Positions 4,514 through 57,535 of a stretch of 63,119 nucleotides of DNA are shown piece after piece. The DNA lies in assembly GCF_056746865.1 (NCBI RefSeq), contig NZ_JBWKMP010000006.1; one strand, 5' to 3'. The notes beneath the pieces are model-generated. The model was not told where the DNA came from. It was given only the letters and a program-made list of their open reading frames with translations, and did not search any database. Made by a program: the position numbers and the translations under genes. The first letter of the stretch is position 1. Each line of letters starts with the position of its first letter. This stretch comes from a plasmid.

Positions 4514-5428
4514 GTGAGTAAGAAGAAAAACACCACAACGCCCACGCCGCATGATGCCGCGTTCCGGTCGTTCCTGGCGAATCCCGACGTCGCCAGAGAT
4601 TTTCTGGAACTGCATCTTCCGGCGGAGTACCGGCAGTTGTGCGACCTGTCCACGCTGAAGCTGGAACCCGCCACCTTTGTTGAGCCGGACCTGCATCAGT
4701 ACGCCAGCGATATCCTCTGGAGCGTGAAAACCACCGGGGGTGAAGATGGCTATGTTTATACGCTCATCGAGCACCAGAGCACCGAAAATCTGTACATGCC
4801 TTTCCGCATGTTACGTTACAGTGTGGCGGCGATGCAGAGACATCTGGAGCAGCACAAAACGTTGCCACTGGTGATTCCTGTACTGTTCTATCATGGTGAG
4901 CGCAGCCCGTACCCGTACAGCATGAACTGGCTGGACTGTTTTGAGAATCCGGCACTTGCGGCTAAAATATACACAAAGCCGTTTCCGCTGGTTGATATCA
5001 CTGTCGTTGATGACAATGAAATCATGAACCATCGCCGGATGGCCGCACTGACGCTGCTGATGAAGCATATCCGCCATCGTGACATGATGGAGCTGCTGGA
5101 CAAACTCCCGCAGGTCATGGTGGAAATTTCAGACGAGCAGGTGCGTGTTCTGATTCATTACATCGTTAACGCAGGGGACTCTGTATCACCGGAATTTATG
5201 CGGGCGCTGGCTGAGCGTCTGCCGCAGCATGAGGATAAACTGATGACTATCGCAGAACGTCTTGAGCAAAAAGGTCGCCAGGAAGGCAGGATGGAAGGAC
5301 GCATGGAAGGAGCGCTTGAAAAAGCCCTGGCTATTGCGTGCCAGCTTCAGAAAATGGGGATGACGCCGGAGCAGATTAAGCAGGCTACCGGACTTTCCGA
5401 TGACGAACTGAAGAAAATCACTCACTGA
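4514..5428 (+). CDS. Rpn family recombination-promoting nuclease (YhgA-like, PD-(D/E)XK)
   Basis: Product ...PTPHDAAFRSFLANPDVARDFLELHLP...YTLIEHQSTENLYMPFRMLRY...PLVIPVLFYHGERSPYP... closely resembles E. coli YhgA/Rpn proteins as recalled; AGGAGGA Shine-Dalgarno before GTG 4514. Confidence 0.85.
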   Translation: MSKKKNTTTPTPHDAAFRSFLANPDVARDFLELHLPAEYRQLCDLSTLKLEPATFVEPDLHQYASDILWSVKTTGGEDGYVYTLIEHQSTENLYMPFRMLRYSVAAMQRHLEQHKTLPLVIPVLFYHGERSPYPYSMNWLDCFENPALAAKIYTKPFPLVDITVVDDNEIMNHRRMAALTLLMKHIRHRDMMELLDKLPQVMVEISDEQVRVLIHYIVNAGDSVSPEFMRALAERLPQHEDKLMTIAERLEQKGRQEGRMEGRMEGALEKALAIACQLQKMGMTPEQIKQATGLSDDELKKITH

Positions 5429-7859: not shown

Positions 7860-8030
7860 CCTGGCAGGGCTGCGCCCTGCCTCTGCCGTCTGCATAAGAC
7901 TATGATGCACAAAAATAACAGGCTATAATGGCCAAAATCGGGGCAGGATGTGGGAATGTCGGACCGCGCACGCTCGCTCAGACATTCCCCACCTGGTCAG
8001 GGCTGCGCCCCGACACCCCGTAAGGAGCTG
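7860..8030. other. oriT: oriT region (origin of transfer), candidate nic site
   Basis: Directly upstream of nikA; inverted repeat GGCAGGGCTGCGCCCTGCC (7863-7881); 9-bp inverted repeat GGGAATGTC...GACATTCCC (7952-7989); IncP-like ATCCTG motif on the - strand at 7944-7949; second GGTCAGGGCTGCGCCCCGAC copy at 7995-8014. Confidence 0.55.
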
Positions 8031-8032
8031 AA

Positions 8033-8366
8033 GTGAGTGATAGTGCGGAAAAGAAAGAAAAGTGAGGTACGGCAAAAGACAGTTGTCAGGACACTCAGAT
8101 TCTCGGAGGATGAGGATGAAATCATAAGGAAAAAAGCTGAAGATTCCGGACTTACTGTATCTGCTTACATCCGAAATGCAGCACTGAATAAGCGAATTAA
8201 CTCCCGTACAGATGATGCTTTTCTGAAGGAGTTAATGAGACTGGGAAGGATGCAGAAGCATCTGTTTGTTCAGGGAAAAAGAACCGGTGACAAGGAATAC
8301 GCAGAAGTGCTTGTTGCCATAACCGAACTTACAAATACATTGCGTAAACAGTTAATGGAAGGTTGA
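8033..8366 (+). CDS. nikA: NikA relaxosome accessory protein (ribbon-helix-helix); start ambiguous
   Basis: Product ...KKSEVRQKTVVRTLRFSEDEDEIIRKKAEDSGLTVSAYIRNAALNKR... matches NikA as recalled; best Shine-Dalgarno (AAGGAG) serves GTG 8033, but that frame stops after 10 codons and the long frame starts at GTG 8037, implying a 1-nt indel in the GAAAAGAAAGAAAAG run. Confidence 0.8.
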
Positions 8367-8376
8367 GGATTCTCCT

Positions 8377-11078
8377 GTGAATGCAGTCATTCCGAAAAAG
8401 AGAAGGGACGGCAAGTCTTCGTTCGAAGACCTGGTATCCTACGTCTCTGTCCGGGATGACATGACCGATGAGGAACTGAATTTATCTTCTTCTTCGCAGG
8501 CTGAACAACCGCACCGAAGCCGTTTCAGTCGCCTTGTTGATTATGCGACACGCCTTCGAAATGAGTCATTCGTGGCGCTGGTTGATGTCATGAAGGACGG
8601 CTGCGAATGGGTCAACTTTTATGGTGTCACCTGTTTTCATAACTGTACTTCTCTTGAAACTGCTGCTGCAGATATGGAGTACATTGCGGACGGCAGGCAC
8701 ACTATGCAAAAGATGATACTGACCCTGTTTTTCACTACATTCTTTCCTGGCAGTCACATGAAAGCCCGCGTCCGGAACAGATTTATGACAGTGTACGTCA
8801 TACGCTGAAATCACTCGGCCTTGCCGACCATCAGTATGTCTCTGCCGTGCATACTGATACAGATAATCTGCACGTCCATGTGGCTGTTAACCGGGTACAC
8901 CCTGAAACGGGTTATCTGAACCGGTTATCATGGAGTCAGGAAAAACTCAGTCGTGCCTGCCGTGAGCTTGAACTGAAGCATGGTTTTGCTCCGGATAACG
9001 GTTGCTGGGTCCATGCGCCGGGAAATCGTATCGTTCGCAAAACTGCCGTTGAACGTGATCGCCAGAACGCTTGGACACGCGGAAAAAAACAAACTTTTCG
9101 CGAGTATGTTGCGCAGACAGCGGTCGCTGGTTTACGCAGTGAACCTGTACATGACTGGTTATCCCTGCATCGTCGTCTTGCGGAAGATGGTCTGTACCTG
9201 TCTCAGATGGACGGAAAATTTCTGGTGATGGATGGCTGGGATCGCAACAGGGAAGGTGTACAGCTTGACTCGTTTGGTCCCTCCTGGTGTGCAGAAAAAC
9301 TCATGAAAAAAATGGGTGACTACACGCCAGTGCCAAAAGACATTTTCAGCCAGGTGGAAGCACCAGGACGCTATAATCCGGACTTCATTGCAGCTGATGT
9401 TCGCCCGGAAAAAATCGCTGAAACAGAAAGTCTGCAGCAGTATGCCTGTCGTCATCTTGGAGAACGTCTGCCGGAAATGGCACGGGAAGGACGGCTGGAA
9501 AACTGCCAGGCTATTCACCGCACACTGGCTGAAGCGGGATTATGGATGCGTGTTCAGCATGGTCACCTGGTTATCTGTGACGGTTATGATCATAACCAGA
9601 CTCCCGTTCGTGCTGACAGCGTATGGTCACTGCTGACGCTCGACAATGTGAATCAACTCGATGGTGGCTGGCAGCCTGTACCAACAGATATTTTCCGCCA
9701 GGTTACGCCAACAGAACGCTTCCGTGGTCGTCGTATGGAGAGCTGTCCTGCGACCGATAAAGAATGGCACCGTATGCGTACAGGTACGGGGCCGCAGGGG
9801 GCTATCAAACGCGAACTGTTTTCTGACAAAGAAAGTCTGTGGGGATACAGCATCAGCCATTGTAGCCCTCAGATTGAAGAAATGATCACACAGGGTGAGT
9901 TTACCTGGCAGCGTTGTCATGAGTTGTTTGCACAACAGGGACTGATGCTACAGAAACAACATCACGGGCTTGTTGTCGTTGATGCCTTTAATCATGAGCA
10001 AACGCCGGTGAAGGCCAGCAGCATTCATCCTGATCTGACACTGGGGCGTGCGGAGCCACAGGCCGGACCTTTTGTGAGTGCTCCAGCAGATTTGTTTGAC
10101 AGGGTGCAACCTGAAAATCGCTATAACCCGGAGCTGGCTGTCAGTGACAGGTACGGGGTCAGCAGTAAACGTGACCCAATGCTGCGCCGGCAGCGACGTG
10201 AAGCCAGGGCTGAGGCCCGTGCTGACCTGCGTGCCCGCTATCTGGCATGGCGTGAACAATGGCGTAAACCGGATCTGCGTTATGGGGAACGTTGTCGGGA
10301 AATTCATCAGGCATGCCGTCTGCGGAAGTCACACATTCGTGCGCAGTACGATGATCCGGCATTACGTAAGCTGCATTATCACATTGCAGAAGTTCAGCGA
10401 ATGCAGGCATTGATCAGGCTGAAAGAAGACATCAGGGATGAGCGACAGAAACTTATTGCTGACGGGAAGTGGTATCCACCCTCTTACCGTCAGTGGGTCG
10501 AAATTCAGGCTGCTCAGGGAGACAGGGCTGCTGTATCGCAGTTGAGAGGCTGGGATTATCGCGATCGCCGTAAAGACAAGTCACGCACAACGACGACAGA
10601 CCGCTGTGTCGTGCTTTGTGAACCGGGCGGAACGCCGGTATACGGTAATACCGGTGATCTCGAGGCCCGTCTGCAGAAGAACGGGAGTGTTCGTTTCCGT
10701 GACCGTCGGACGGGAGAGTTTGTCTGTACGGATTATGGTGACAGGGTTGTTTTCCGTAATCACCATGACCGCAATGCGCTGGCAGATAAACTGGATTTGA
10801 TTGCACCGGTATTATTCGGGCGTGATCCACGCATGGGGTTTGAACCAGAAGGAAACGACAAACAATTTAACCAGGTCTTTGCTGAAATGGTTGCCTGGCA
10901 TAATGTGACAGGCCGTACCGGTCACGAAGACTACAGGATTACGCGACCGGACGTGGATCATCACCGTGAAGGAAGTGAACGCTACTACCGCGATTATATC
11001 GCGGCGAACAGCAACGATGACGCATCACTGCCTCCGCCGGAGCAGGATAAACGCTGGGAACCGCCTTCTCCAGGTTAA
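8377..11078 (+). pseudogene. nikB: NikB relaxase (MOBP), frameshifted in this sequence around 8698-8708
   Basis: N-terminal 143-aa ORF (8377-8808) and 743-aa ORF (8847-11078) join if one nucleotide is restored; the second frame upstream reads ...DPVFHYILSWQSHESPRPEQIYDSVRHTLKSLGLADHQYVSAVHTDTDNLHVHVAVNRVHPETGY (His-rich relaxase motif); combined ~900 aa. Confidence 0.85.
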
Positions 11079-16646: not shown

Positions 16647-16770
16647 ACTGTTCCGTTACAGAGTGGGTGGCTCTGACCGGAGGTCTATAACTGACGCTAA
16701 AAATGATAATTTGTTCTAACTGATTAATGTTCATGCCATAAGTTTACGGGAAAGGCTGACCACCTGATAT

Positions 16771-16801
16771 TTGCAAAATACGCAAGTCCATCCTGTATAA
16801 T
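16771..16801 (+). promoter_or_regulatory. sigma70-like promoter for the DinQ-like locus
   Basis: TTGCAA (16771-16776), 19-bp spacer, TATAAT (16796-16801) preceded by TG. Confidence 0.45.
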
Positions 16802-17028
16802 CCGCAGGTCAACCAAGCTCTGTAATGGCTAGACACATTCTGTAGCCCGCTGATATCCATCGGGACTATGGACAGCTGTGCTATTCAAAGTCCTGGCCGG
16901 ACAAACAGGTGGTGCTGCGTTTGGTGCTCTGGCCGGAGGAAGTCTCTTTTCAACTAACACTGAAAGTGCCGTTGTGACAGGCAATGTAAGAGTAAACAAC
17001 GGTGATTTCTCCAGTGATGGAGAAGCGG

Positions 17029-18040: not shown

Positions 18041-18703
18041 TTAAAATACTTCGGCTACAGGCATGCCTGCAATCTGCTCCCACTCCTTACGCTTCTCCTG
18101 AATCAGGCGAGGAAAGTCGACAGGGTAATCATATCCTCGACTTGCCATAGCGTGCATGGTGTTTGATGCGGTTTCTGGATGAGTACACCATGATGGAATA
18201 GGAACCATTGGCAGGTTGATGTATTTCGTATGAATTTCCAGTGTTTTGTCGTCTGTTACAGTACGAGTGAAATTATGAATGTCAAAACCGATAACATCCA
18301 TAATGTTGCCTGGATAGATACGGACATACAACATTGTGCCATTTTTAAGGTCAATACCGAAATAAGCTCCCTGAGTTAAAGATAATCCTTCATACCCCTT
18401 CTCTGGAGAGTAGAAGCCTGACTCTTTTATTGTTTGTACAACTTTTCTTATCTTTTCTCTCCTTGTTTTTGCACGTGAATACATCCATATACCTGGCGCA
18501 AGTAATAAGAACCAACTACCAAAAGTGACAACATAATCTTCAATGTTGTCACCATAATAACGAGAACTAAATAACATCAGTGTAGATGTCAGTGCGCAAA
18601 ATAAAAAGAAAGGTATTCCTAAAAAGAAGTAAGCCTTCCTTAATACATAATATAACAACCACCAAGTTGGAAATCTGTCAGTTGTCTCTTTTTTATCTTT
18701 CAT
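18041..18703 (-). CDS. excA: ExcA entry (surface) exclusion protein
   Basis: 220-aa membrane protein immediately downstream of traY; size and position match R64 ExcA as recalled. Confidence 0.8.
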
Positions 18704-18831
18704 ATAATGCCTCCCCTCGTACTATCTATTATTTTAATGCCGATGGGGAGGTTGTGCAATAGTGTTTTATTATATTATCCTTTTATTCCGTCCTTGTCGT
18801 CACTTCCTATTATCTTTAACACGATCTGTTT

Positions 18832-21008
18832 TCATTCCGAAGGAGTATGTCGGATATTGCGACTTCCTCCAATAAATATTTCTTTAACAGAATTTGCCAT
18901 GCTGCCAAGAGTGTTGGCTCCATCACGTCCCCCAAGGAAATTAATAACATGATCAGGTAGGTAGGCCTGAAGGGCAAATATGGCAGCTACAGAGGTTGTA
19001 CAAATTCTGGCGTATATCAGCAAGAAACCAGCAAGACTGAAAATACCGGTCAGCGAATTGAACTGTACGTTAACCAGGGCAGCGCCAAATAATGCATTCA
19101 GTATTGTGCCTACGGCGATGATGGCGACAGAAGCAAAGAAAAAACCAAAGACCATGAGGGCGGCCTTATCATACTATCAATTAAGTATATATAACCGTAG
19201 GCTGCCCGACTTCCTCTGTCTTCTGATGTTCCGAGATGTGTTGCAGCCCACAGAGGCCCGGCGGTACATCCTATTAATACGCTGACTATCCAGTTCCCGA
19301 TGCCTGTCATCCAGAAAATAAACGGAATAAATGGCAGGTAAATTGATAAGGAAAATCCAGCACAGAACATCAGGAACAGCAAGAAATAAACAGGTGGTGC
19401 AAGTGCTTCAAACAGCGCGGTAAGCATCGAAGCGGCACCTGTTAGTGAGTTAAAGAATTTTACAAGAATTGAGTTTTGCCACTGGCAACGACAACTCTGA
19501 CCGTTGTATATAGTCCAGATTCCTTCTGCACTTACCATTGTTATATCTCCGATATTTTTCATTTTTATCAGATGGATTAATTTGATCGCTGGTTGTTCCT
19601 GTGCCACTTGTTTCTGTTGCAATCCTGTTAGTGAGACTAACAAGGGGGCCCATAATTTCAGACAAGGCAGATTTAGGATCTTGTGCATTTGCCATTCGTT
19701 GTTCAGTTGGATGATAGTACTGTGCCCAGCGGTGGCGTATAGGAGGAATTCTGCAGTTGCGTCCTGGTAGGCACTCATGACCGCACTGAATAAGTCAGTA
19801 TCACCAACTTCTCCCAGTGATGACATTGAAGTTACAGCTGGAGCTCTGTCAGCCAGCTCTGCCAGACGCTGGTTAGCAGTGGCAAAGGTCTGATACCATG
19901 CGCCAAGCGTTACCCACCCGTAGGTTGTGAGATAAGATTTAAGAGCCTCTTTTCTGGATTGCTCTCCGTTATCAGTGGGTAGCGATTTTTGCACAGCACG
20001 TTCATATTCGTCGGCTGCTTTCTGAATCCGTGTCTCGATATCCGGCAATGTTCCGTTGCCAGAATTTCTTTTTTCCAGAAATGTTGTCACAAACTCACTG
20101 GCAGCGTTGTCCATGTCGCTAATCATATTATCCATGGCTGCACGTTGTGCTGAGATAACACCGCTGTATTCGTTTTTACTGAAGGGATTAAAGAATTTTC
20201 CAATCGTCGATTGATCTGTTGTTCCGTTTCCTTCTACTGACAGGCTGGCTGAACCACAGATACCGCTGCCATTGGATACCGTGACAGTGTAATTACCACT
20301 GGCGGTTTTAGCTGATTCTGTCATCAGTGAAGTCGAGGATTTGGCCGTCTGATTAAAATCATTTAGTCCTGCGTTAACCGCATACTTACACAGTTCCATT
20401 TCAAAAATGCCACGCGCTGCTGTTCGTGTGGATGCCTGAACTGGCTGTACAGTCATTGAATAACCATTTGCGATATTATCAGCGGCAAGTTGCACCATCA
20501 CATTGGCGGACCCAACCCCCATTATCGATGCGCCCCATAACATAATGAGCTGAGCGATACTCCAGCCATTTCCGGTTGGAACGATCATCAGAAAACCTGC
20601 AACGACACTCAGTGTGCCGACGATATCGCGTCCGGTGCTGAATACCTGTCCCTGATGCCCCGAACGCACAACATGACGGATACCAATGAACATAAACCAG
20701 ACAACGGCAAGTACGGCGATGATACTGTTGAACGCCCCGAACATGCTTCCGATCAGAGTGGGGGCGCTGGTTGACAGTGGATTGGTGACTACATCACCGA
20801 ATATCGTGACCAGCGCCTGGCGAGACAGATCGTCAGGATTGGTTGCGGCAGACACAATATCCTGATAGGTCACTGAAGCCATTGCCGGCAGTGAGGATAT
20901 AGCAAGGCCTGCACAGAGTGCGCGAAGTAAAATTTTCACAGTAACTCCGGAATAGAATTGCGTATGGGCAAAGGCCACACAGGATTTAATTAAGGGGGAT
21001 GGCGACAT
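18832..21008 (-). pseudogene. traY: TraY (DotA-like polytopic membrane protein), frameshifted near the A6 run at 19139-19144
   Basis: 632-aa ORF (19110-21008) and 107-aa ORF (18832-19155) overlap in different frames; adding one T/A in the homopolymer joins them (...IRPPSWSLVFFFASVAIIAVG...). Confidence 0.8.
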
Positions 21009-21648: not shown

Positions 21649-22851
21649 TCAACGTGCGTTTGCCTGATTGATTGTTTTCTCAAGGCTACCGAGTTGTTTT
21701 TCATAATACTGGCGGGCGGTCAGAGCCAGTTGCTGGCCAGAGATAACATTACCCTGGCGGATCTGTTCTTTCAGATCGTTCAGCTGCCAGTTCATTTGCG
21801 CAGTGATTCTTACCAGTTCACGGAGCAGGTTATCCCCCTGCATTTCCTGTAAATCCACCAGGTATGCTGTGTTGGCGTAGCGCCGGCCAGCCTCAAAAGC
21901 TTCAAACTCACGGGTACTCATATATCCCCGTGCTTTTGCTTCTGGTGAAGCCACCTGGTCGAAGTAAGCGGCCGCTGAGTCTGACTGCAGTGTTTCAGCC
22001 AGTGCTTTACGTGTGCTTTCATTAGGCGTGCTGTCAGCAATCAGCGTCAGTTGGGGATTCGACGCAGAATCAATGATGCCGTTGTATTCGTTCTGGAGTC
22101 CGACGTAGGTTCGCCCACTCTGGGTATTCACTTCTCCTTTACCCAGAGCACGACCGGCAGAGGGGCGGGAAGTGTTTTTCATGTAAGCCGTCGCTGCATC
22201 TATTTGCTTCTGATCCCATGTCAGTGCTGCAGGTGTGTCCGCTGTACCTGCGCCGTGGTAAATCGAGCGTACCTGACTGTCTCCACCTGGTATTTCGCCC
22301 ACAGAAGGACAAACGGCGGTTCCTCCAAAACGTGCATATTCTGCTTCTGTACAGTAACTGGCGTGTATGGCCGCGCCATCATAAGCTTCCCGCACGGGAG
22401 AGTTTGCTGCGCTGGCCAGACGGTCGCGGATGCTACGGTTGCTCACACCGCCACCTTTACTGAGTTTTGAGGCTGCGGATGCTGAGGCACTTTTGCTTTC
22501 TGTTGCAATCCCTGATGCGGATTCACTGCAGATGGAGTCTGGCACGGTGAAGCTTTTCCGTGCCTCCTCGAGGCGCTGAGTTTCATTACTGAAAATCATC
22601 TGCTGACGTGTCGCCTGTCCGTTCTGGGCAATGACACTTGCCAGCTTTTCAGAGTTCTGATTGATAGCGGTACCCGTGGCTGTCTGGGTACTCAGTATGT
22701 CACTCAGCACACCTTTGATGGCCTCCATTCTGGGGACGACCTGCTGTTCAACGGGACGGCTGGCGACGACGGTGACTGAATAAGCATGAGCCTGGCATGC
22801 CGTTCCACTCAGGATGGCTATAAGGGCTGCGAGTAATGTTTTTCTTTGCAT
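21649..22851 (-). CDS. traW: TraW
   Basis: 400-aa ORF with a signal peptide; assigned by synteny. Confidence 0.7.
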   Translation of the reverse strand: MQRKTLLAALIAILSGTACQAHAYSVTVVASRPVEQQVVPRMEAIKGVLSDILSTQTATGTAINQNSEKLASVIAQNGQATRQQMIFSNETQRLEEARKSFTVPDSICSESASGIATESKSASASAASKLSKGGGVSNRSIRDRLASAANSPVREAYDGAAIHASYCTEAEYARFGGTAVCPSVGEIPGGDSQVRSIYHGAGTADTPAALTWDQKQIDAATAYMKNTSRPSAGRALGKGEVNTQSGRTYVGLQNEYNGIIDSASNPQLTLIADSTPNESTRKALAETLQSDSAAAYFDQVASPEAKARGYMSTREFEAFEAGRRYANTAYLVDLQEMQGDNLLRELVRITAQMNWQLNDLKEQIRQGNVISGQQLALTARQYYEKQLGSLEKTINQANAR

Positions 22852-32627: not shown

Positions 32628-35600
32628 TCATCGGCCGGGGCTGTGGGAGAGATCCTGATGCAGAGTTTTTTCCTGCCTGTCCTCCGGCTTTTGGCTGTTG
32701 GACCACTGCTGCCATGACTGCTCGAAGCCCAGGTTCCGGTACAACGCATCAGGTTGTTTTTCCGGCGTGTAGACAGCAGCAAAAAGCGGTTCTTCCCGGG
32801 TTTTCAGATGAAACTGCATAAGCTCCGGTGCGGGGCGATTCGTGCTGTCAGCATCGTGGTTTACCGCTTCACCATAACCTGCAAAGCGTAAACCTTTGTC
32901 GGTCAGCGCATTGATAACCAGCTGACTGTTGTCGGCTGATGGGGTGGCCAGTGCCGGATACAATGTGCCGTTCAGCCGGACCACACCCTGCAGATGTTCA
33001 TCGGCACTCTGGACAAGTAGCAGGTTGAGTTCACGCGTATCCTTATCCACTGATCCCAGAACAGGTGTCAGCTTGTCAGGGGCTGCGCTGGTTATTTCTG
33101 TTACCTGATTTGCGTTCTGTGGCGCGGAGACCGGATGTCGGTCTTCACCGATAAACAGATGTGAGCCGACGTTTTCTGGCATACGTAACGCTTTCATCTC
33201 TTCGGGCCACCCCTGGCTGATTTGCGCAGCCACTTTCATAAAGGTTTCGACCGGAATCGCCTGAATACGCTGACCTTTATCCGGATTATCATGTGATACC
33301 GAGATCCCGTTGGTAACTGACTCCATGGACCACTTATTCCGGAAACGTGCTTTTTGCTCTCCCGGGAGGATGAATTGTTCGCGGTTCTGAAGTGTCAGTG
33401 TCACCACGTCACCTTTCTGATGGTTTTTGACCAGACTTTCCAGTTGTTCCCCCCAGTAGAGTTTGCTGCCACTGCGGTTTTTAAGCTCAACAAAGAAACT
33501 CTCTCCTTTGCCGGGTGCATATTCAGCACGACCAAAATTGTGCAGTACGGCAGTCACGCTCTCTCCCGGGCGAAGTTTTCCTGGTGGTTCTTCACCTTGT
33601 GCCGCATCTGCCGTTTTGCCAGGTTCAGCCGGTGATGATGCAGGGACGGTGCTGACGGTTGATGCTTCAGGGGCAACTGGGGACGCCGGGGATTGTGTGG
33701 CTTCTTTTTCCTGAACGGGGTCAGGGACAGCCGGTTGTTCAGGGGTATTCCGGTTAAGTTCCGGTGTTGGCTGATGGGTGACAACAGCATCCTTACCGAC
33801 AGCCATTTCCTTGCGTAATTTTTCGAGCTCCAGACGCTGATCAGGCAATTTCATGCGCACATTGATGTTGTGCTCGATAATCAACTGCATCGCTTTTTGC
33901 TTAAAGGCATCACTGCCCGTCAGCTCAATGACGCCACCATAAAAATTAGTGGCCACAGCAAGTGCGGCCAGAACACTGCGATCGTCATTGCTGGCACCGT
34001 TGACCATTTCCAGCCGGTTTACCCGGTCAATGAAGGCAGGTTTGCCATCCAGTTTGTACAGGACGGTTCTGTCTGCTCGTTTTTCCCCTTCAGTGATTTA
34101 ATGATTTCGTCCAGATTGAGCGATATCGGTGCATCAGGACGTTCCGGGGCGTAGACAATACTGTCAGGTGTCGGTGTGGTCGTCGTGGTTTCCGGTGAGG
34201 GCGTGGGATCACTGTTCTCATGTGCCTGTGAATCCGTTTTTTTACGCGTAAAAAAGCCACGCGCTTTGTCGAGAAACGATGAAGTATTATCAGAAGGTGA
34301 TGTGCTCTGAACAGGTTGCTGTGGATTGGGTTCATCCCGGACAGCCGGTTCTGCAGTATCTGTTGTGGCCTGAAGTTCTGACTCATCTGCCTGAACGTGG
34401 TCTGTGTCCGGTTGCGACGGCATATCACTGTTTTCCTGCAGATGCTCAGGATTTTCATTGTTCATCAGCTCCTGATATGCGCTGTAGTTTTCGTATTCTT
34501 CGGGGCCATCTGACTCAGGAAGGAACGGCTCTGGCTGAAGGGGAATGTCTTCAGTTACATGGCTGACCGCCTCTTCCCGGGGAGTATCCGGGGATATTCC
34601 GGTGCTTTGTTTGTCATCAGGCTCCGTCATCACGGTCATTTCCTCTTTGACTGCATCAGGGGAAGGTGATGGCTCGGCTGATTCATTCATGGTTTCAGAT
34701 GAGGGACTGTCTTCAGGGGATGCGGGGGCGGCAGCAGGGGCCGGTATTTCAGGTGAAGTGCCGGATTCCTGTTGTGACTCGTTTTTTTCCGGTTGTGACA
34801 GTTCGGCTTCAAATTCACGCCAGTCTTTATCTGTGGCCACCGAGACAACTTTTTCCGGAGGTTCCGCCGGATGAGCGGGTTCATCAGGGGCAGATGCCGT
34901 TGTACTTTCCGGGGACGCCGGTGATTCTGCAGGGGAGTCCTGAACTACAGAGCTTTCCGTTTGCGCCTGAACGTTATCAGCGTGCCGCTCATCTTTGCCG
35001 TTATTTTCAGTGGCGTGACTGGTAAATGACTGTGTTTCATCAGCAATGTTACTGCTGGAAGCAGCTGGTTGTTCCTGCTGCGTGGCGGACGGCAGAGAAG
35101 GTCCCTGGTCATGGCTGTGCCCTGTATCGGGTGATGTTTCAGGATATTCTGTCGGAGTCATGGTTTTTTCCTCAGTGTGGACCGGTGTAAAAACGAGGTT
35201 GCCGATCACCAGTGCCTCGCGGATTTCCGGGGTGTTACTGTTGGGGGTGGAAACCCCGATGTGTTCTAACTGGGCGTTGATGACATGCTGAAAAGCGGCC
35301 CGTCCCCGGCTTGCGTCCAGGTCATTGAAATCGGTCAGCCCCTGCGCTTTTTCGGCATCGGTGAACGCAGGAAAGATGACCGTTCCTCCTGTCAGTTCTG
35401 CGGCTTTTGTTGCACTGACGATACCTTTGTTAACCCGGATTGCATGATCGTTGTCGGCACAGAAGATAAAGGGGCTTTGCGTCCACTTTTGCCGGGCATT
35501 TTCGGCAACGGCAATCATGTTGCCTCCATCCACCGTCATCAGTACCGGAAGGCCCGTGGCTTCGTGCAGGGAGGCCGCAGTGGCATAGCCCTCGGCAAAC

Positions 35601-36394
35601 AGTACCGGCTGACCGTTGCGCGGTGTGCCCAGCGCAAACCAGTTACCGGTTTTCTCTGAATCTTTCAGGATGCGGGCATCCTTCCCCCCGGTGACCGGAA
35701 TACGCTGGTAAGAGCGTATCGCGCCGTTACGGTTACTGAAGGGAATAACCAGTTCATTTTTGTTGTTTACCCGCACCCCCGGTGCAGCCTGAATGCCTTT
35801 CCGGGTCAGGTATTCATGTGCTGTGGCCTGCGGCCATTTGTTGACATAGCGGCGGGCATACGCGGCCTGTCGGTTGTACTGTGCTTTCAGTTCCCGCTCC
35901 GCGTCCTCCCTGCGTTGCATTGAATGCGCTTTCAGGTGGAGTCTTGCGCGGGGATCTGTCTGTTCTCCGCCGGAGAAGGTCCAGGTGATCGGCGAATCAT
36001 CCGCGCTGCGATAATCCCTGTACCAGCCGGCAGGTCTGCCGTCCAGGAATCCGCGATATGCGCCACTTTTTTGTCCTTTTTTGTCATCGGCGGTCGGGAC
36101 ACGGTGGATTTTCCCGTCCATGACCGGCAGTTCTTTCAGAACCAGTCCGGCATTCTCCAGAACCTGGGCAAACTCGGTGACCGGATCACTGCCGTTCATG
36201 GAGACGTCCTGTGGCCGGGGCAGCCAGCGGTCCAGCCTGGACAGGTCCGCCCCCGGGCGGGCGAACCAGAGTTTGTGCTCCTTGTCCCAGATGACGGGCG
36301 TGTGCCCGTTCATCGGGGGATGTGCTTTTTTGAGATCTTCTATTTCATCTGCAGGCACGGCAAGCCAGGTGCGGTAGCGGGATACAGACGGCAT
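32628..36394 (-). pseudogene. sogL: Sog DNA primase (SogL/SogS), frameshifted between 34022 and 34098
   Basis: N-terminal primase part (ORF ending 34019, start ATG 36394 with AGGAGA) and 459-aa C-terminal ORF (32628-34007) are in different frames; a G4A5 run at 34081-34089 is the likely indel site; Asp/Glu/Pro-rich linker is typical of Sog. Confidence 0.85.
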
Positions 36395-36483
36395 GAGTGC
36401 TTCTCCTGAAAAAAGACGGAAAAAAACCACCGCCGGAAGCCGGGGGTGGCTGGGGGGATAGAAAATCGGGGGAGAAATGTTTG

Positions 36484-49866: not shown

Positions 49867-51421
49867 TTAGGCATCATCGATGCTGAGGCGTTCGTCTTCG
49901 TCCAGAGGGATGATTCTGTCGGCTTCAAGAGGGTCCACCAGGCCTTCATTGATACGGCGAAGAAGATGCTCTACACGACTGATGCCATGCATGTTTTCAA
50001 GCCAGTATTTACGTGCTGCAACTTTGCCGCGTGTTTTCAGAATCTGAAATAAGCGATTATCAGGTTCTATCACTTCAGCAATTACGGTCCTGCCGGTGAG
50101 GCCTTTACCTATTTCACCGCGCTTTCTGCCGTTAATAATTACGTCGTGATTACAGTCGGAGCATCCGTGAGGATTTCGGAACCAGATATTATCTGTACTG
50201 CAGAGTGAATCTTTATTGCAGTGCCGCTCAAGGTAAGCGCGGTCGTCTTCGCTAAGTTCAGGTACTCGCTTTTCCCATGGAATACGGCAGGAGGGACACA
50301 GAGTTGGTACAAGGCGCTGGCTGATCATCCCAATCAGTAATTGCGCATCGCAAATAAGATCGGCATTCATACCCATCGTAATCATTCGCTCCGGTATACC
50401 CAGAGCTGAGTTTGTATGTAATGTCGTCAGAACGATGTGACCGGTCTGAGCCGCGTAGGTGGTTGACATCATCGAGACAAGATCGCGCATTTCCCCTTCC
50501 ATGATGGCATCGGGGTCAAGTCGCATTGCCGATGAAATAGCACGACTCCATGCCAGTTTGACGGCCTCTTCGTCGGATTTGTCACAGATAATCGGGGTTT
50601 GTGTTGCCCCCAGTATCTGTCCTTCCAGCGGATCTTCGATCGTCAGCAGGTGTCGCCCCTGATTATCGTCAAGATATACACGGCAGGCACTGCGTAACGT
50701 TGTTGATTTACCGGAACCTGTTGGACCAGACAGAACTATTTTCCCTTCCGGGCGGCGCAGCATGACGTTCAGCAACCGGATTTGCTCCGGTATAAAGCCC
50801 AGTTGCTTAAACGTGGGAACTTTGTCTCCGTCATCGGGTATCAGGCGCATAACTGCAATCAGACCATCTCCCGTAGGTCTGTGACTGTATCGTGCACCAA
50901 ATATTCCTATTTTTCGCATTAATTGTGGGGACAGGCGCGCATCCTGTTCCCTTTGAGGGAAGAAACTGGTTTCAGTGACATCAGCCATTGACAGAATGGC
51001 TGTTGCGCAAAGTGAATAACCCAGTGCAGGTTGATCTTCATCTACAGTCTGCAGTTCACCGAATATTCTCATGCGAACTTTGAAAATAGACTCTGAAATT
51101 AAAAAATGAATATCTGAAGCACCAAGTTTTCTGGCCGTTTCAAAATAAGAGAGAACTTTCTTCTCACTTTCACTGACATCTGCAAGATCTTTCAGATGAA
51201 TAATCCGTTCTTTCGGACCTTTATTTTTCATCATCCTGACCGGCTTCCTGTAACTCAGACAGCGAGACTACTTTTGGGTTGATGTCAGGGTATAATTTTA
51301 GCAGTTCCTGGAGATTACTCTGTACGTCAGGTCTTGTTCGCTGATTTGTTTCGATGAGAATTTCATGGGTGTCTCCCCGGGATATAAAAAGGAGAGCATC
51401 CTTCAGATTATATTTGTCCAT
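49867..51421 (-). pseudogene. pilQ: PilQ pilus assembly ATPase (GspE-like), frameshifted at the A5 run 51225-51229
   Basis: 66-aa ORF (51221-51421) and 455-aa ORF (49867-51234, Walker A GPTGSGKST) join into ~517 aa if one A is removed. Confidence 0.85.
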
Positions 51422-56392: not shown

Positions 56393-56686
56393 TTAATTGA
56401 TGTGAGGCGGCTGGAGAGGACGAATGACGACTGTCATTCCGTCCGAATGCAAATGCGGGAAAGACCACTGAAATAAGAGATATATAAAAGGAATTGATAA
56501 TTTTTCGTACAGACTTGTTTTCCGTGGGTATGTAATAACTGAAAAACTCAAATCATAAGATTTCAGTCTCTTTATAAGTTTATTTATTCTTGCTGGAGTA
56601 AAGAGATGTGAATGCATGACAATGATTTCATCATTATTAATTGCTTTTGATATCAGAGAAAGCAATACATCCCAGTGTTTCCTCAT
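56393..56686 (-). CDS. hypothetical protein in an AT-rich island (pilK position)
   Basis: 97-aa ORF, ATGA-coupled to the upstream ORF; GC content well below the backbone. Confidence 0.4.
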   Translation of the reverse strand: MRKHWDVLLSLISKAINNDEIIVMHSHLFTPARINKLIKRLKSYDLSFSVITYPRKTSLYEKLSIPFIYLLFQWSFPHLHSDGMTVVIRPLQPPHIN

Positions 56687-56985
56687 TGACTTCGGGCAAC
56701 GTGTGTCAGCATAGGGGCTAAGATGTATAGTTGATTTCTTGCTTCCCTTTTCTTCTTCACAAAGAATGTGAAGTCGTATTTAGATGCAGACCTTACAATA
56801 AGAAGTACACATCTGAAAAGTAGTGGGAAAATGCAAATCACAACCACCACACAGAAATATAACATATAAGGCAATGATAAGTTGTCAGTGTATGGATAAC
56901 GTAAGTATTGCCATGGGGTAGTGATGTACAGACAAAGCGTACACCAAAGCAACCAGAGATATAATGGTACGTTATTATTTTTCAT
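56683..56985 (-). CDS. hypothetical small membrane protein in an AT-rich island (pilJ position)
   Basis: 100-aa ORF with two or three transmembrane segments; AT-rich. Confidence 0.4.
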   Translation of the reverse strand: MKNNNVPLYLWLLWCTLCLYITTPWQYLRYPYTDNLSLPYMLYFCVVVVICIFPLLFRCVLLIVRSASKYDFTFFVKKKREARNQLYILAPMLTHVARSQ

Positions 56986-57109
56986 GTTGGCTGAGGCAGG
57001 CGACTAAAATAACAGACTAAGGAGGATTAACTGTTTAATTCTTTGGAACAAAAAAATGCAGTTCCTGATCATCACACACCATTGAATAAACATTTTGCTT
57101 CGGTTGCGT

Positions 57110-57364
57110 TCATGATAGCCAGTCCTGTAGATGCTGATGGCGGGAGCTGCTGCCCTTGTGCCAGCGGCAGTGGCTGCCGGGAGCACGCTCCAGTCGGAAC
57201 AGAAATCGGTTGTCGCGTAGTACCACCACGAGACAGTTATCCGGCGTGCAGAAACGTCGGGCAAGCTCATCGGGGTCTGTCGGTGTTTTCGTTGAAAACA
57301 GCCTGCGTTTGCAGTGTGCGTCGACGACCAGTATTTGCAGTCGTCCGGGATGTTGCTGTGGCAT
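57110..57364 (-). CDS. small protein, candidate PilI
   Basis: 84-aa ORF from ATG 57364 with strong AAGGAG Shine-Dalgarno at 6-nt spacing; overlapping ORFs on other frames rejected. Confidence 0.4.
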   Translation of the reverse strand: MPQQHPGRLQILVVDAHCKRRLFSTKTPTDPDELARRFCTPDNCLVVVLRDNRFLFRLERAPGSHCRWHKGSSSRHQHLQDWLS

Positions 57365-57535
57365 CAAAGACTCCTTCCGGAACGGGAAAAGAAGCAGCTG
57401 TACCGTCATAACTGCACGTACCGGTTGCGAAAAAACGGCACAAGCGAGTAGTGACAGAAAGAATGTCGGAAACGGCAGGAAGGGCGGTACAGGCTGCGAA
57501 GACTGGAAACGGGGTATGCCGGGGATTACACATCC

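Follow-up and report, generated by a model that had tools for sequence, protein, structure and literature searches.

The thin-pilus gene pilQ on the stretch of IncI-type plasmid DNA analyzed here (63,119 nucleotides, hereafter the window) is interrupted by a single extra A, and this base is fairly likely to be a sequencing or consensus-calling error. As written, pilQ (49867..51421, minus strand) is a frameshifted pseudo-CDS; the real plasmid probably encodes an intact PilQ of 517 amino acids. Taken at face value, the base would place a TAA after 66 codons, with loss of full-length PilQ and thereby of thin-pilus assembly. Unique frameshifts in nikB, traY and sogL of the same record most likely reflect similar errors, local in extent and random in type.

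The window represents 63 kb of an R64-like plasmid, for which more than 1,300 related plasmids were found by BLAST against PLSDB. The gene order runs from the end of parB through psiB/psiA/ardA, oriT-nikAB, trbCBA and excA to traY through traE, sogL, rci with the shufflon, pilV through pilI, traCBA and a replication gene. The alignment with R64 (NC_005014.1) covers nearly all of the window. When each R64 protein was compared with the window, about 55 genes proved to be full length; among the transfer and pilus proteins, 18 (5,055 codons in total) were 100% identical to those of R64. Two stretches of tra genes, at 20-33 kb and 35-44 kb (22 kb in all), are free of indels relative to R64 and have 0-21 mismatches per kb. 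The first-pass annotation had cautioned that other small or odd ORFs might be artefactual. This caution is not borne out: apart from the disrupted genes treated below, the remaining R64 homologues are full length except parB, which is cut by the window edge, and pilV, the C-terminus of which varies with the shufflon. Large-scale divergence from R64 is limited to two absent genes, pilJ and traD, which span about 450 and 680 bp there, respectively; the corresponding sites are 57083-57117 and 57528-57533. No IS insertions were seen in the window comparisons.

R64 alone is a poor reference for this window. It gave about 90 gap openings, most of them alignment noise from regions of natural divergence (4-5.5 kb, 16.7-16.9 kb and the shufflon), and the nearest allele per segment was used as reference in its place. 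A panel-based list of 'private' substitutions was left out quantitatively, because the panel was small and the result panel-dependent. Between the hok/pnd region and dqlB, a block that is extra or diverged relative to R64 (16684-16876) is read as a naturally variable spacer. The Rpn-family nuclease gene at 4514-5425 shares 79% identity with the R64 protein and shows several in-frame length differences; it is a different, intact allele.

With the extra A removed, the product of the window gene has the same length, 517 amino acids, as PilQ of R64 (WP_000362202.1) and shares 97% identity with it, the two alleles differing at 14 amino acids and 76 nucleotides. Both fragments align to the R64 protein, and the neighboring products, PilP (98%) and PilR (100%), are encoded in the R64 order within a pilI..pilV operon common to both plasmids. 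At the site of the lesion the window belongs to an allele group that reads DDENKG (DEKNR in R64), and the exact protein of this group is encoded on other contigs. Pfam family PF00437 (T2SSE) covers residues 86-464 of repaired PilQ (E = 2.5e-63). Among solved structures, those of BfpD and GspE give matches with E values from 1e-45 to 1e-42, the best relative being BfpD (chain 8dze_A, E = 2.6e-45). The four motifs of the GspE/PilB/BfpD family are all present in addition to the T2SSE domain: Walker A (GPTGSGKS, 232-239), the Walker B/Asp-box (GEMRD, 309-313), the His box (TGH, 326-328) and the tetracysteine motif (CPSC...CSDC, 375-423). The N-terminal 85 or so residues have no sequence similarity to the solved GspE, PilB and BfpD members, and it is within this part, upstream of the conserved ATPase core, that the frameshift falls. 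By these comparisons the gene is to be regarded as the orthologue of R64 pilQ, coding for an assembly ATPase of GspE/PilB type; its position between pilP and pilR, as in R64, assigns it to the thin (type IVb) pilus. It is thus a known R64-type gene in a known operon and not a new kind of system.

Unlike R64 pilQ, the window copy as written carries one additional A and lacks a single uninterrupted frame of about 517 codons. A stop follows after 66 codons, and 455 codons lie in another frame. The 5' ORF of 66 amino acids (51221..51421, minus strand) comprises PilQ residues 1-65 plus a lysine, followed by TAA, and ends in ...GQDDEK. The 3' ORF of 455 amino acids (49867..51234, minus strand) starts with MMKNKGPKE at an ATGATG inside the overlap and contains the whole T2SSE domain. 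The two ORFs overlap by 14 nt, and the coding strand at the overlap reads GATGATGAAAAATAAAGG, that is GAT GAT GAA AAA TAA in the first frame and ATG ATG AAA AAT AAA GGT in the second. The extra A sits in an A4 run at codons 64-66. In the first-pass annotation the resulting A5 run had been placed at 51225-51229; the run of five exists, and its position is 51224..51228 on the minus strand (T5 on the plus strand). All relatives with the same flanks have A4. Deletion of one A yields a single ORF of 517 amino acids, and tblastn with R64 PilQ (97% identity) assigns residues 1-65 to frame -2 and 65-516 to frame -3. Together with the T2SSE match this confirms the earlier proposal that removal of one A fuses the two ORFs into a GspE-like ATPase of about 517 amino acids. 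Judged from the alignments, the split is a true frameshift within one gene and not a pair of chance ORFs. The extra base is the sole indel in 1.7 kb relative to the two nearest plasmid alleles, the remaining 12 differences from each being substitutions.

The A5 allele is private to this record. A 61-mer carrying it was exact in none of the 557 PLSDB records that matched it (the corresponding A4 60-mer was exact in 531), and it was likewise exact in none of 247 E. coli RefSeq records. An exact-pattern scan with an A5 37-mer gave no match, either in 100,044 species genomes or in a collection of metagenome contigs. Exact-product look-ups for the 66-aa and 455-aa fragments found neither on record as a gene product, and a search of the literature turned up no relevant account of pilQ frameshifts in IncI1 plasmids. 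The repaired protein, on the other hand, is encoded residue for residue on independent contigs, whose pilQ genes differ from that of the window by 13 and 25 nt without a single amino acid change, all differences being synonymous. PilQ has therefore been under purifying selection up to the tip of the lineage. This conservation, together with the uniqueness of the A5 allele, leaves two options for the extra A, a very recent origin or an artefact.

The same surveys bear on the idea that the split is functional, be it by programmed +1 frameshifting at GAA-AAA-TAA, by phase variation via the A run, or by a PilQ made in two pieces; as a whole this is very improbable. A few features of the site are in its favor. 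The first ATG of the 455-aa ORF lies within the overlap and is preceded by AGGAAG at a distance of 9 nt; the ORF retains the whole T2SSE domain, and the part of PilQ alignable with solved ATPases is downstream of the break. A translational restart at the ATGATG is conceivable from this arrangement. If the A5 run were real and termination at the TAA were coupled to such a restart, the gene would yield a 455-aa ATPase with a complete T2SSE domain and, as a second product, the 66-aa N-terminal peptide, and assembly of thin pili would be retained or modulated; we give this two-piece form very little credence. What speaks against a functional split is that the two-frame form is missing from all 557 plasmid and all 247 E. 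coli relatives, that A4 is invariant in the 531 relatives with exact flanks, and that neither fragment is a recorded product. Programmed ribosomal frameshifting, which requires a conserved two-frame architecture, was rejected on the same counts, the 531 A4 records being one-frame. A phase-variable contingency locus requires a long polymorphic tract and was rejected as well, the run here being 4-5 nt and invariantly A4 in the 531 relatives. Both a contingency locus and transcriptional slippage need runs longer than four to five bases.

Whether the extra A belongs to a systematic error was examined over all homopolymer runs of at least 4 nt in the window. Of the 834 testable runs, i.e. those whose flanks match a reference, 830 keep a length seen in a reference, and among the 20 testable runs of 7-8 nt not one has changed. 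Four runs differ from every reference: two at intergenic sites, one in pilQ and one in pilK. A platform-systematic error would affect many runs and be enriched in long ones, and neither was found. Systematic homopolymer error is not supported, because 830 of 834 runs are unchanged and 22 kb are free of indels relative to R64. The earlier argument that systematic sequencing indels fit better than independent decay is therefore kept in part: error remains likelier than decay, but it is not systematic.

Several other conjugation genes are nevertheless disrupted, as had been proposed, and nikB, traY, sogL and pilQ are broken as written. In the relaxase gene nikB (8377..11078, plus strand) the lesion at 8688-8689 is a complex +2 in which GGA stands in place of C, leaving ORFs of 143 and 743 amino acids. 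It involves no homopolymer, is absent from four references and is shared with 0 of 328 plasmid records. The primase gene sogL/sogS (32628..36430, minus strand) has lost one base near 34086, which shifts the frame; relative to the nearest allele it is a single A lost in TTTTTC[A]CCC, a state found in 0 of 771 plasmid records.

The most heavily altered gene is traY (DotA family; 18778..20939, minus strand), the frame of which breaks at 19158. Private indels lie at 19158, 19475, 19507, 19573, 19706 and 19766, with two more in the last 20 codons. The references R64, CP090862 and pNORD58_3 agree with each other at these sites. Most of the six to eight indels are not in homopolymers, and several are complex, with a substitution paired with an indel outside any repeat. 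Six events within 610 bp are a marked departure from an even spread (Poisson P about 4e-8). In the R64 frame, the substitutions relative to R64 comprise 22 synonymous and 9 non-synonymous changes, including stretches that are out of frame in the window. This synonymous bias persists even where the frame is shifted, and the indels therefore postdate selection. The shifted stretches are shared with no protein in a database of 5.8 billion sequences, and for the garbled 263 amino acids the best database protein is 62-66% identical. Inspection of the indel contexts by eye for Dam/Dcm motifs revealed no consistent motif. The patch looks like local poor sequence rather than the outcome of evolution.

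Two further genes alter the earlier tally of five disrupted genes, four of them at homopolymers, which does not stand. The first is nikA (8037..8366, plus strand), which had been counted as disrupted. Its 5' end is changed, by -1 at 8027, before the start codon, and by T to AA at 8049, yet a frame of 109 amino acids is open from the GTG at 8037, and the gene is probably not disrupted. As described above, the nikB lesion is a complex +2, traY is altered mostly outside homopolymers and sogL has lost a single A. Pure homopolymer length changes among the disrupted genes are confined to pilQ and pilK. The exact NikA product was not on record in an exact-product look-up. Codons 22-30 of nikA (8100-8126) carry a clustered change relative to all references, from TCTCCTGTT to TCGGAGGAT, which creates a GAGGATGAGGAT direct repeat and turns SPVEDET into SEDEDEI; this has the look of a templated change of several bases, not of a series of point mutations.

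The second gene is pilK (56393..56985, minus strand), a real homopolymer frameshift that was missing from the earlier list. An A5 run is shortened to A4 (T5 to T4 on the plus strand, 56748-56751), leaving ORFs of 100 and 97 amino acids. Among 937 plasmid records, two carry the T4 allele, NZ_CP139841.1 (pNORD58_3) and NZ_CP027396.1; the allele could be a pseudogene truly in circulation or an error that recurs. Over 50-58 kb, pNORD58_3 and the window share about 99.5% identity. pNORD58_3 has the pilK allele in common with the window and differs from the window in having an intact pilQ (A4), an R64-like traY at every indel site and differences independent of nikB. Neither pilK nor traW is listed as a CDS in pNORD58_3, so disrupted tra or pil genes also occur in other deposited IncI plasmids. 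Between the traW gene of that plasmid (41732-42926) and the window there is an indel of 4 nt (window 21882-21885). Codon differences between the pil genes of the window and pNORD58_3 (18 synonymous, 11 non-synonymous) were considered as a sign of relaxed selection and set aside as too sparse to show it.

The strongest alternative is that the pilQ frameshift is a real and very recent loss of function in which slippage in the A4 run added an A and truncated PilQ after 66 codons. Transfer would then have been lost through nikB, traY and sog, and the thin pilus dismantled stepwise, with pilJ absent, pilK frameshifted and then pilQ. We consider this rather unlikely, and it has several points on its side. 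The pilK frameshift is shared with pNORD58_3, an independent and closely related record, and therefore may be a real allele; pilJ is absent; and if the thin pilus were already disabled, a real second hit in pilQ would be more plausible. Homopolymer slippage is a natural type of mutation. The record is not generally poor, being accurate over most of its length, as the unchanged runs and the indel-free 22 kb attest, and other IncI records in the database have disrupted tra or pil genes too. The window also holds private features that are clearly natural, namely the compensated oriT repeat variant and the mostly synonymous excA patch described below, and in a poorly sampled lineage arguments from uniqueness are weaker.

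Against a real mutation stand the absence of the A5 allele from some 800 related sequences and a PilQ with zero amino acid changes relative to independent alleles. The cluster of complex indels in traY, in the same record, is very hard to obtain naturally. Moreover, the lesions are confined to small indels, with no IS insertion seen, and four unique frameshifts lie beside 18 transfer or pilus proteins identical to those of R64. Natural mutation in E. coli yields about ten substitutions per small indel, as known from mutation-accumulation studies. Decay that produced four indels should therefore have left about ten amino acid changes in the 18 identical proteins, and none is seen. From this combination we infer error rather than mutation as the cause of the extra A in pilQ.

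The private features at oriT and excA are observations in their own right. In oriT (7934-8020) the inverted repeat reads GGGAATGTC...GACATTCCC in the window and GCAATTGTAATA...TATTACAATTGC in R64, both arms being changed in a compensating manner. An 83-86 bp core of this variant occurs at 96-98% identity in 11 metagenome contigs (L009-L019), often as inverted pairs that adjoin a replication gene for a 332-aa Rep_1 (rolling-circle) protein. In one of these contigs (L010), two copies of the core lie upstream of an R64-like oriT with an IncI backbone. The arrangement suggests that an oriT of IncI type may reside on small rolling-circle plasmids and pass between these and IncI plasmids. The divergent patch at 18491-18840 comprises the 5' end of excA and the excA-traY spacer. 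About 35 nt changes within 160 nt at the 5' end of excA result in only 12 amino acid changes. No closer ExcA relative was found among database cluster representatives (best identity 93-94%), and the exact ExcA product was not on record. The patch has the appearance of another entry-exclusion allele acquired by natural import.

The pil genes of R64 are needed for mating in liquid and not on solid medium, and its nikAB/oriT and traH-trbC block are needed for transfer. NikB, SogS and TraY were scored as required for IncI transfer in a transposon screen of pESBL (PMC4288162). The window represents a standard transfer region of the IncI (R64) type, and the main value of the present result lies in annotation quality. 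The rest of the window is reliable by this audit, and its other small ORFs need no distrust on this ground. The apparent pseudogenes pilQ, nikB, traY and sogL should not be taken as evidence of a non-transmissible plasmid unless reads confirm them. Should the lesions in nikB, traY and sog be real, the plasmid would be unable to transfer by itself, and this would bear on risk assessment of its spread.
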